From Candidatus Wukongarchaeum yapensis (GTDB lineage: Archaea > Asgardarchaeota > Wukongarchaeia > Wukongarchaeales > Wukongarchaeaceae), in assembly GCA_016840425.1 (NCBI GenBank), contig JAEOSI010000141.1, positions 1 through 6,143 on the forward strand: DNA of 6,143 bases, written 5' to 3'. Below the pieces are notes generated by a model, which was given only the letters and a program-made list of their open reading frames with translations, ran no database searches and was not told the origin of the DNA. Numbering within the stretch: the first letter of the stretch is position 1; each line of letters opens with the position of its first letter. The position numbers and the translations under genes are program-made. This document shows, one piece after another, positions 3,034 through 6,037 of this stretch.

Positions 3034-3118
3034 TAAAAACCAAAAAAAATAAGGTAACTACGACTTAAAACGTTAACTTTTTCAATGTTAATTAGTTTTA
3101 CTTGCTATACTTTTTGGT

Positions 3119-3391
3119 TTGACCCCCCGTCGGGTTCCTTCAACTAATAGGGTTAAAAAGGGATGCTGCCCGTACTATGACGGTAAACGTTGTAATTTGA
3201 TGAATGCCTGGTGTACCCAATACAAATCATACGCTCTATACATCGAGTATTTACAAAGACAAAGTCGAGAAGAAGTGGAGACGTTAGTGGCTTCACTAGG
3301 GGAAAAAAGCGCCAAAAAAAGCGTAAGTTTGGAACTTCTTGCGTTATTGAGTTTCTTGACCAGTTTTGACTCATTGGGCTTTGTTTTTTAG
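3119..3391 (+). CDS. Small hypothetical protein with a Cys motif (CCPYYDGKRCNLMNAWC) and a hydrophobic C-terminus; possibly a pseudogene or read-through gene
   Basis: 90-aa ORF divergent from xpb. It has clustered Cys, a GNN-rich middle part (EEVETLVASLGEKSAKK) and a hydrophobic tail. TTG start without an SD. No family recognised. Confidence 0.4.
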   Translation: MTPRRVPSTNRVKKGCCPYYDGKRCNLMNAWCTQYKSYALYIEYLQRQSREEVETLVASLGEKSAKKSVSLELLALLSFLTSFDSLGFVF

Positions 3392-3453
3392 CGATCAAGT
3401 CTGGGAAAGCGGGATAAGCTTGCGATATTACAGTTTTATACTTTAATAAAATA

Positions 3454-3657
3454 TAAGAGGAGAAAATCGTTGTGTGAACTGCTCCCAGCTATCGCAGGGA
3501 GCTTCCTGTTTCAACGACCAACTGCGAGGTCTCAGCAGGCTTAAATTCGGGCGGTCCCTGCCCTACTGTGTCCCGCTTCCTGCGTCTCCCTCGGCTTTAC
3601 GTGCTACAGAGACTAAGAAGCGGCGACTCGTAGCACGACCTCTTTGCCTGCAGGTTG
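3454..3657 (-). ncRNA. Putative TnpB omega-RNA/reRNA-like scaffold with about 20 nt of flanking guide; the 5' end is an estimate
   Basis: Contains GTAGGGCAGGGACCGCCCGAATTTAAGCCTG...TTGAAACAGGAAGC-hairpin-AGTTCAC, typical of tnpB 3' ends. Stems: GGGC/GCCC (3563-3549), CCTG/CAGG (3539-3505), GACC/GGTC (3531-3516), and an 8-bp stem at 3637-3600. TGAA (3513-3510) can pair with the terminal TTCA as a pseudoknot. Expression is not shown. Confidence 0.55.
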
Positions 3658-3722
3658 ACACAAGAACATACTATAGTGCACATAAATGCTTTTCGGCTTT
3701 CATCTCCCAGCTTTCGCAGGAG
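3481..3722. repeat. Pair of directly repeated subterminal hairpins (3482-3501 and 3704-3722)
   Basis: Plus-strand ctcccagctatcgcagggag versus ctcccagctttcgcaggag: one substitution and one indel. These are the likely TnpA-binding hairpins. Confidence 0.85.
3679..3696 (-). promoter_or_regulatory. BRE/TATA-like internal promoter of element 1
   Basis: CCGAAAAGCA-TTTATGTG just inside the left end resembles archaeal BRE (CCGAAA) plus TATA (TTTAT). It points toward the RNA scaffold, with a predicted start site near 3655-3660. Confidence 0.35.
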
Positions 3723-3938
3723 GAATTCCCGTCGAACAAAGTTAAAAAAGGTTAATTACTAAAATTTTCTTATAAGTAACATGGAAAAATATTTTGTTTA
3801 TCTTGCAAAAATTATTAAATCGATGAATATTTTAGAGATTTTAGGGCAAGATTTGTTTTTACTATTTTTGTGTGTGTTTTGGAGCGTGTTTTTGTTTTGC
3901 CGCGGGTTCTTGTTGCTCAAAGTTTAGGAAGGGGATTT

Positions 3939-5514: not shown

Positions 5515-5549
5515 AGGCTGCAAACACTCCAAATAATTGACAATTTTAT

Positions 5550-6017
5550 CTCCATACCGCAAGAAGACCTCTTCCGCAAGGGAGGGGATGAATTGCGACC
5601 GATGTCTATTAGGGGTGCTTAAATATGAATTTTGCCCAAAATACATTTAGGATAAAAAAGCTCCTCTCACCGAGCTACGGGAAGCTGACCTCGTTCTTAG
5701 AGTACAAACTCAAAAGAGTAGATATCGTGTTAAAGAAGGTCAGCGAAAAAGAATATACCAGCAGGATGTGTCATACCTGCGGTGATGGAAAGAGAAAAAA
5801 CCACACAAAAAAGGGGAAGCTTTAACTGCAAAAAGTGCGGTTACAAAAATCATCCCGAGGCGATCAGGGCTTTAAACGCCCTCAAAACGTATCAGTATGG
5901 TGCGTTGGAAAACGTTCCTAACTGTAATTCCTGCGTGAACTCGGGCAACGTGGTCAAATGGGATCCGTCTCATTTGGCATGTACGGAAGCTTCGTCTGGA
6001 AGGGCGGAGTAGTTCAC
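5550..6017 (+). mobile_element. Internally deleted IS200/IS605 (IS1341-type, tnpB-only) element, 468 bp
   Basis: Target TTTAT | left end CTCCATACCGCAAG-AAGA-hairpin CCTCTTCC-GCAA-GGGAGGGG-ATGAA; outer stem CGCAA/TTGCG. Right end GAAG-hairpin CTTCGTCT-GGAA-GGGCGGAG-TAGTTCAC. A tnpB remnant lies between the ends. Confidence 0.88.
5625..6012 (+). pseudogene. tnpB: tnpB (IS200/IS605 OrfB) remnant: N-terminal stub fused to the C-terminal Zn-ribbon/RuvC-III region, frameshifted
   Basis: SD GGGGTG plus ATG 5625 and N-terminal TFRIKKLLSP, then directly SYGKLTSFLEYK...EYTSRMCHTCG. A +1 frameshift in the A6 tracts (5795-5812) leads to RGSFNCKKCGYKNHPEAIRALNAL, where the typical HAD.NGA.NI motif shows Asp>Glu. 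WED/REC/RuvC-I and II are missing. Confidence 0.88.
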
Positions 6018-6037
6018 TTATCTCGCTCCCTGCAAAC
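5930..6037 (+). ncRNA. Structured 3' end of element 2 (omega-RNA-like core plus flanking guide); the 5' limit is unknown
   Basis: Stem 5948-5982 (about 15 bp with G-T pairs and one bulge, TCCG loop), right-end hairpin 5990-6009, and GTGAACT (5935-5941) perfectly complementary to the terminal AGTTCAC (6011-6017). Guide would be TTATCTCGCTCCCTGCAAAC. Confidence 0.45.

Follow-up and report, generated by a model that had tools for sequence, protein, structure and literature searches.

The 6,143-nt stretch of DNA analyzed in this study (hereafter, the window) contains, at positions 3474–3741 of the minus strand, a non-autonomous, protein-free IS200/IS605 mini-element (PATE). On the basis of comparative sequence and structure analysis, we consider it fairly probable (about 0.65) that this mini carries a stand-alone omegaRNA guide that would be used by the TnpB of a sister element, and we place less confidence in the window copy itself being active today than in this RNA-guide reading of the element. 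Compensatory base changes at ~70% identity argue that the RNA, beyond the ends of the element, is under selection. The element would represent a clean and comparatively well-supported Asgard case for gene-less IS200/IS605 elements that carry guides and borrow the TnpB and TnpA of their relatives. The features to which we refer below are as follows.

3474..3741, minus strand: whole mini-element, 268 bp, with its left end at 3741 and its right end at 3474 (alignment of 12 minis and the empty site of a sister)
3742..3746, minus strand: TAM TTTAA, directly 5' of the left end (conserved at in-genome copies; empty site in the congeneric genome G001)
3692..3741, minus strand: left end, a subterminal imperfect hairpin (3704–3723) followed by the conserved ATGAAAGCCGAA (aligns with sister minis and with the full-length tnpB element on contig C137)
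3680..3687, minus strand: TATA-like box ATTTATGT with a BRE-like, purine-rich AAAG before it (position kept in all mini lineages)
3567..3662, minus strand: conserved 5' RNA domain of ~96 nt with the invariant ACCTGCAGGCAA and GTAAAGCC (covariation in 15 copies)
3657–3662 with 3567–3572, minus strand: helix S0, which closes the 5' domain
3630–3637 with 3600–3607, minus strand: hairpin S1, an 8-bp stem
3609–3623 with 3573–3588, minus strand: helix S2, pairing of the S1 loop with sequence downstream of S1
3549..3563, minus strand: omegaRNA stem 1 (P1), GGGCAG-GGA-CCGCCC, overlapping the relic codons VGQG (5 of 6 pairs doubly changed across 41 sequences)
3505..3540, minus strand: omegaRNA stem 2 (P2), GCCTG at 3536–3540 with CAGG at 3505–3508 (98.8% paired in 41 sequences)
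3516–3531, minus strand: short stem 3 (P3), GACC/GGTC, inside P2 (covaries among minis)
3474..3502, minus strand: right end, hairpin P4 (3481–3502) and the terminal AGTTCAC (3474–3480) (~28 genome copies; strong covariation)
3454..3473, minus strand: flank-derived guide ACAACGATTTTCTCCTCTTA, outside the element (the sequence after GTTCAC is different in every copy)

The boundaries of the element were established by comparison with its sisters. When the 12 minis of the same genome were aligned, divergence began exactly before TTTAA+C and after GTTCAC, so that both the first and the last base of the element are C, and 14 in-genome copies had TTTAA directly before their left end. Fifteen tnpB-linked right ends were aligned with the minis as further evidence for the identity and ends of the element. 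For one sister copy, C77a, G001 has the empty site ..CCTTTAA/ATTGGTAAG.., and in the window's genome (G000) the corresponding flanks enclose an insert C..GTAGTTCAC, with no duplication. This polymorphism defines TTTAA as the TAM, indicates that no target duplication arises, and sets the window element at 3474–3741; the ends, the TAM and the guide at 3454–3473 proposed in an earlier note on this DNA were thereby confirmed. A TTTAA TAM has been demonstrated experimentally for SisTnpB1 of Sulfolobus islandicus (10.1101/2023.03.06.531077). The hairpins of the left end (3704–3723) and the right end (3481–3502) constitute a 17-nt direct repeat with 94% identity, and there are no terminal inverted repeats. 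As to the claim that both ends are intact, both hairpins are present and align with the ends of sister elements, but the left-end hairpin of the window copy is less perfect, by one mismatch, than the right-end hairpin. The latter, P4, is both the hairpin recognized by TnpA and the guide-adjacent stem of the omegaRNA. The guide occurs once in G000 and contains a T4 run at guide positions 8–11, which could act as an archaeal transcription stop after ~11 guide bases.

The window is contig C144 of the G000 assembly (2.16 Mb, 277 contigs, 38% G+C). The mini-element sits in a 712-bp spacer (3088–3799) with an XPB/Rad25-type helicase gene on one side and a CBS-domain gene on the other, whereas the syntenic spacer of G001 is just 49 nt long and, having been remodelled, provides no clean empty site for the window element. 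A search of G000 and G001 for an empty allele by the TAM+guide pattern returned only chance near-matches with unrelated flanks.

At 268 bp the element is below transposase-coding size, and it contains no conserved ORF and no Pfam match, in agreement with its earlier description as a protein-free mini-element. The tail frame TVGQGPPEFKPAE and the TAA at 3599–3597 that blocks it were both recovered in the frame-2 translation, and translation in frame revealed neither a RuvC-III nor a Zn-finger relic, as expected from the proposed loss of RuvC and Zn-ribbon coding. What the element has retained is a promoter-like sequence. In full-length elements (L176 and L182 in genome G310, and the C137 element), the same left end and TATA box lie upstream of the tnpB start codon. 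The BRE/TATA-like motif described previously, found here at 3680–3687, is therefore homologous to the tnpB promoter of the full-length parents, and the minis fuse the promoter of their parent to the RNA. In all mini lineages the TATA box lies ~20–25 nt upstream of the first conserved helix (S0 or P1), with a spacer that is not conserved, and we infer a predicted transcription start ~20–25 nt downstream of the TATA box, near 3657–3664. The TATA-like box of the window copy is weaker than those of its sister copies. A promoter and terminator scan relied on bacterial-type models and was uninformative for an archaeon.

The genome that hosts the element contains ~28 related right ends and 31 TnpB Zn-ribbon matches. 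Among the right ends are those of intact tnpB genes encoding 397–412 aa, which have the same right-end type as the window element and a full Pfam architecture; their ORFs end in ..GQGLSEFTPVE.. with the stop at most 18 nt from the right end. The copy count and the search for a full tnpB with the same 3' end that had been suggested for this element thus both gave a positive answer, and cognate intact genes were located on contigs C59 and C137. The best match outside this genome for the resident TnpB proteins is in a Candidatus Hodarchaeota MAG (78% identity), which identifies the host as an Asgard archaeon of Hodarchaeota-like character. The protein-free minis comprise ~10 copies of 205 bp together with a copy on C154, a sister of the 268-bp form; this longer subtype has only two copies in the genome, that of the window and that of C154, which are ~70% identical. 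A single intact tnpA, adjoining a tnpB, was found on C70 of this 92% complete genome, and the sequence of its left-end hairpin differs. Evidence of mobility is confined to the short sister family, namely the presence/absence polymorphism of C77a. The window copy looks older than its sisters and shows mild signs of age: a mismatch in P1, a weaker left-end hairpin and TATA box, the T4 run among the guide bases, and a single, distant sister.

Contig C77 has a second mini (C77b), which lies within a 641-bp stretch (L215, 3908–4549) that corresponds to 71 nt at G001:C18:28049–28121; the C77b spacer, like that of the window, has thus gained several hundred bases beyond the mini-element. Unrelated tnpB families on C172, C265, C216, C228, C61, C212, and C97 have the right-end terminus GTAGTTCAC in common, and the right ends of another tnpB group (C117, C63, C270, C5, and C7) finish in (G)TATGTCAG. 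The two termini suggest two transposase specificities, each common to many TnpB lineages.

The right-hand part of the element, ~93 nt at 3474–3566, shares homology with tnpB 3' ends, both those of the genes on C59, C143, and C205 and those of ~30 loci in other archaea. The stretch between the VGQG codons and the right end was aligned for 41 sequences, comprising the window, 5 other protein-free minis, and 35 tnpB-linked copies, most of which belong to other groups of archaea (DPANN, Bathyarchaeia, Hadarchaeota, and methanogens) and 3 of which come from MAGs labelled bacterial. P1, P2, and P4 together showed 93.6% standard pairs, with double changes at 14 of 19 pairs, compared with 27–50% pairing in slid controls. 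In P2, a pair swaps between C-G (33 sequences) and U-A (8 sequences) with zero breaks. P3 covaries among 15 copies (GACC/GGTC, GATT/AATC, and GACG/CGTC); a long form occurs in the tnpB genes of the window's genome, and a short form in the window and in L058 and L101, which are natural tnpB-linked copies. A candidate pseudoknot joins the P1 loop GGAC to GUUC at 3476–3479. In all 41 sequences, the P1 loop G(G/A)A(C) is able to pair with the UUC at -5..-3, in positional correspondence to the ISDra2 pseudoknot (PMC10097598); since this pairing is near-invariant, the pseudoknot is compatible with the data, yet unproven by covariation.

The window copy was compared with its C154 sister at the level of individual pairs. 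At ~70% identity, 24 pairs differ between the two copies, 18 of these stay paired in both, and 11 of the 18 are double changes. Random, non-compensated decay of the stems, which the earlier note had named as evidence against its reading, is the opposite of what was seen: compensatory changes keep the stems at this degree of divergence. The folding z score of the 191-nt scaffold was -3.7. The conserved RNA core that had been described as intact is present in every part, and its stems 1, 2, and 4 covary, but P1 of the window copy has one A.C mismatch and the pseudoknot lacks support from covariation. In ISDra2, deleting the 5' region of the omegaRNA or its stem 3b leaves activity equal or better (PMC10097598), which suggests that a short P3 is tolerable and that the 93-nt scaffold of the window is, as judged from these comparisons, plausibly a complete and minimal one.

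The earlier description of the element as almost all omegaRNA scaffold did not hold. The ~96 nt at 3567–3662 constitute a separate 5' domain, which occurs in no tnpB-linked omegaRNA examined and does not resemble the 3' coding part of the resident tnpB genes; the 3' regions of other tnpB families of this genome are unrelated as well. The 8-bp stem noticed previously, formed by 3600–3607 and 3630–3637, is real and corresponds to S1 of this domain. S0, S1, and S2 are supported by 15 copies from 5 genomes. A count over ten helices, which takes in the stems of the core and one long-range candidate pairing besides S0–S2, gave 96.5% paired cells and double changes at 18 of 54 pairs, compared with 37–45% pairing in slid controls; as the copies represent only four independent lineages, these statistics overstate the number of events, although the direction of the evidence is still clear. 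S1 and S2 interleave, and their arrangement would correspond either to an H-type pseudoknot or to two alternative folds. The long-range pairing of ACCTGC (3649–3654) with the P3 loop GCAG(G/T)T was set aside: it fits most copies, shows zero covariation, and is broken in genome G312. An alternative ACCU/AGGU hairpin is equally unproven.

The 5' domain has a narrow distribution. It is conserved at 74–79% identity in protein-free minis of G309–G312, which belong to two other families of the same phylum and contain ~15 copies with 84–91% identity to the reference copy. A search of 151 Asgard genomes with a covariance model built on the domain retrieved only protein-free minis, one decayed copy (G307), and one doubtful match. 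When these results were combined with a phylum-wide BLAST of 400 genomes and with one metagenome, the domain was found in protein-free minis of three genera; the pattern scan of that metagenome gave 12 loci with the domain, all 12 of them protein-free minis. In 97 tnpB loci the covariance model found nothing beyond the common P1 hairpin, and an Rfam scan of the whole window on both strands gave no match at E up to 1, known small ribozymes included. An origin of the domain from tnpB coding sequence was rejected, given that no RuvC-III or Zn-finger relic was recognized and that 0 of 97 tnpB loci matched beyond P1; a likeness of GTGTC.ACCTGCAGG to KCPYCG codons was too weak for use. The 5' domain appears to be undescribed and lineage-specific, and it was found in no TnpB-linked guide RNA.

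The doubtful match, L228 (G301:C2:25843–25956, minus strand), scores a weak 31 bits and has no recognizable omegaRNA core downstream. It reproduces the interleaved S1 (CGAAATG/CATTTCG) and S2 (GTTCTGGGT/ACCCAGAAC) and may be a remote relative or a chance match.

For the RNA-guide reading, we propose the following course of events, which draws on the published retention/homing model (PMC10055086; PMC10691335). TnpA acting in trans would transfer the element, in single-stranded form, to positions immediately 3' of TTTAA, and the inherited promoter would drive an RNA of ~190–215 nt through the right end into the flank. The TnpB of a full-length sister of the C59 or C137 type would bind the scaffold and, with 16–20 flank bases as the guide, would cut the empty donor joint TTTAA+ACAACGATTTTCTCC.., after which recombination would restore the element. 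The most likely outcome of such a cut, as analyzed here, would be to favour the retention or homing of a gene-less element. In the omegaRNAs of the resident tnpB genes, stem 3 is long and the 5' domain is absent, and compatibility of the resident TnpB with the mini RNA is thus presumed. The 5' domain itself would be an add-on of the protein-free lineage, and our best guess is that it serves RNA stability or maturation where TnpB is not bound co-translationally. A more ambitious proposal, which we hold only tentatively, is that the domain (S0, the interleaved S1/S2, and an A-rich linker) represents an adaptation specific to omegaRNA elements that encode no protein, and a new class of structured RNA in Asgard archaea, in which a pseudoknot cap would protect or mature the guide RNA, for example, by blocking 5'-to-3' decay or by self-processing. 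If true, the domain would allow an element without a gene to rival full-length elements in securing their nuclease, and such minis would be "parasites of the parasite".

The signs of age described above could also mean that the element is an inert derivative left by an internal deletion, either still mobilizable by TnpA or an immobile remnant, whose hairpins serve recognition at the DNA level or are simply inherited and which makes no functional RNA. Deletion of the core between repeats readily yields PATEs (PMC3119063), a decayed copy is present in G307, and the window copy has its A.C mismatch in P1, weakness in both the left-end hairpin and the TATA box, and a lone, distant sister within the genome. 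We nevertheless regard this explanation as unlikely, for it leaves the structure in the interior of the element unaccounted for: S0, S1, S2, P1, the long-range P2, and P3 are distant from the ends and are compensated at ~70% identity, and the position of the TATA box has been kept across lineages. TnpA needs only the subterminal hairpins, as PATEs with a length of 52 bp are still mobile (PMC3119063); ~190 nt of compensated structure is thus unneeded for transposition, which argues for selection on the RNA.

Alternatively, the RNA may be functional without being primarily a nuclease guide. The 5' domain could be the part under selection, as a cargo ncRNA, a self-cleaving or exonuclease-blocking fold, or a decoy for TnpB, with the scaffold serving as a means of mobility or a handle. 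The domain covaries and equals the scaffold in conservation, it is missing from all 97 tnpB-linked loci searched, it occupies the position of the dispensable 5' region of the ISDra2 omegaRNA, and its pseudoknot topology and A-rich linker would suit such a role. However, short sister minis without the domain work, or at least spread; the scaffold of the very copies that carry the domain is also structurally constrained; and no Rfam match, small ribozymes included, was obtained at E up to 1. A functional RNA that is not primarily a nuclease guide is therefore, in our judgment, quite improbable. A small protein encoded on the plus strand (ORF 3474–3755, 93 aa) deserves mention because open antisense frames of 68–118 codons occur in several copies. 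G+C-rich structured RNA is stop-poor by composition, though, and indels of 1 and 2 nt break the frame between copies, and C154 has three short frames; substitutions track base-pairing rather than codons, and there is no Pfam match. With a frame that is unconserved across copies and no family match, this ORF was rejected, and we give a protein product next to no credence.

The concept behind the RNA-guide reading has precedents, as the earlier note had recognized: PATEs with omegaRNAs are described in PMC10055086, and stand-alone omegaRNAs in PMC10691335, as far as its summary of the original work goes. Like PATEs, as described by Dyall-Smith et al. for Haloquadratum and Natronomonas (PMC3119063), the window element has near-terminal palindromes that are alike at both ends, no terminal inverted repeats, and no target duplication; it is too short for a transposase, and its ends are common with those of resident tnpB elements. 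It differs from PATEs in that its host is an Asgard archaeon, the parental tnpB promoter is fused to the RNA, and a conserved 5' domain of ~96 nt is present that is not derived from resident tnpB 3' ends. The PATE-like elements of Geobacillus stearothermophilus "often encode omegaRNAs", for which TnpB must act in trans (PMC10055086). Stand-alone omegaRNAs of OMEGA systems, according to the summary of Altae-Tran et al. 2021 in PMC10691335, function in trans with compatible effectors. They resemble the window element as mobilized guide loci without effector or transposase, with effector-bearing copies in the same genome; compared with those described there, the window element, a putative case of this kind, represents an archaeal TnpB lineage and has the extra 5' domain.

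Two full-length systems allow the layout to be compared. The omegaRNA of ISDra2, known from cryo-EM (PMC10097598), has the same order of parts as that of the window: stem 1, a pseudoknot before the guide, stem 2, a variable stem 3, and the guide-adjacent stem 4. In both, stem 2 has its 3' strand at -35..-32 relative to the end of the scaffold (CAGG in the window; PMC10097598), the flank past the right end supplies the guide, and a 5' extension lies outside the protein-bound core. The 5' region of ISDra2 is disordered and dispensable, whereas that of the window is a conserved, covarying fold. In addition, sequence similarity is undetectable, the stem 1 loop of the window is only 3–5 nt, and the TAM is TTGAT in ISDra2 and TTTAA in the window. 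SisTnpB1 (10.1101/2023.03.06.531077; PMC11043419) is likewise an archaeal IS200/IS605 system with a TTTAA TAM and a right-end omegaRNA (two hairpins); unlike the window mini, it is a full-length tnpB element, and the likeness noted here is one of TAM and layout. The ~93-nt scaffold with its TTTAA TAM may constitute a guide RNA of naturally minimal size that serves an archaeal TnpB family, and the 5' domain could teach how a stand-alone omegaRNA is stabilized, matured, or loaded.

The neighbourhood of the element contains two further features. The spacer that holds the mini-element also has, at 3119–3391 on the plus strand, a small ORF whose 90-aa product is rich in Cys (..CPYYDGKRCN..WC..) and has a hydrophobic tail, and for which a Pfam search gave no match. 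It is missing from the syntenic G001 spacer, and copies with 77% identity lie at G000:C214:3643–3812 and G001:C82:7026–7208; the ORF may represent a small gene that is mobile or has been duplicated. At 5545–6019 of the plus strand, the window has a second IS200/IS605 remnant, with a frameshifted tnpB fragment (PF07282 match at 5625–5825). The left end of this remnant (CGCAAGAAGACC-hairpin-GGATGAATTGCG) is similar to the left ends of the G310-type elements found in other Asgard genomes, and its right end also terminates in GTAGTTCAC, at ~6011–6019. Related copies are present on C61, C212, C177, C97, and C246.
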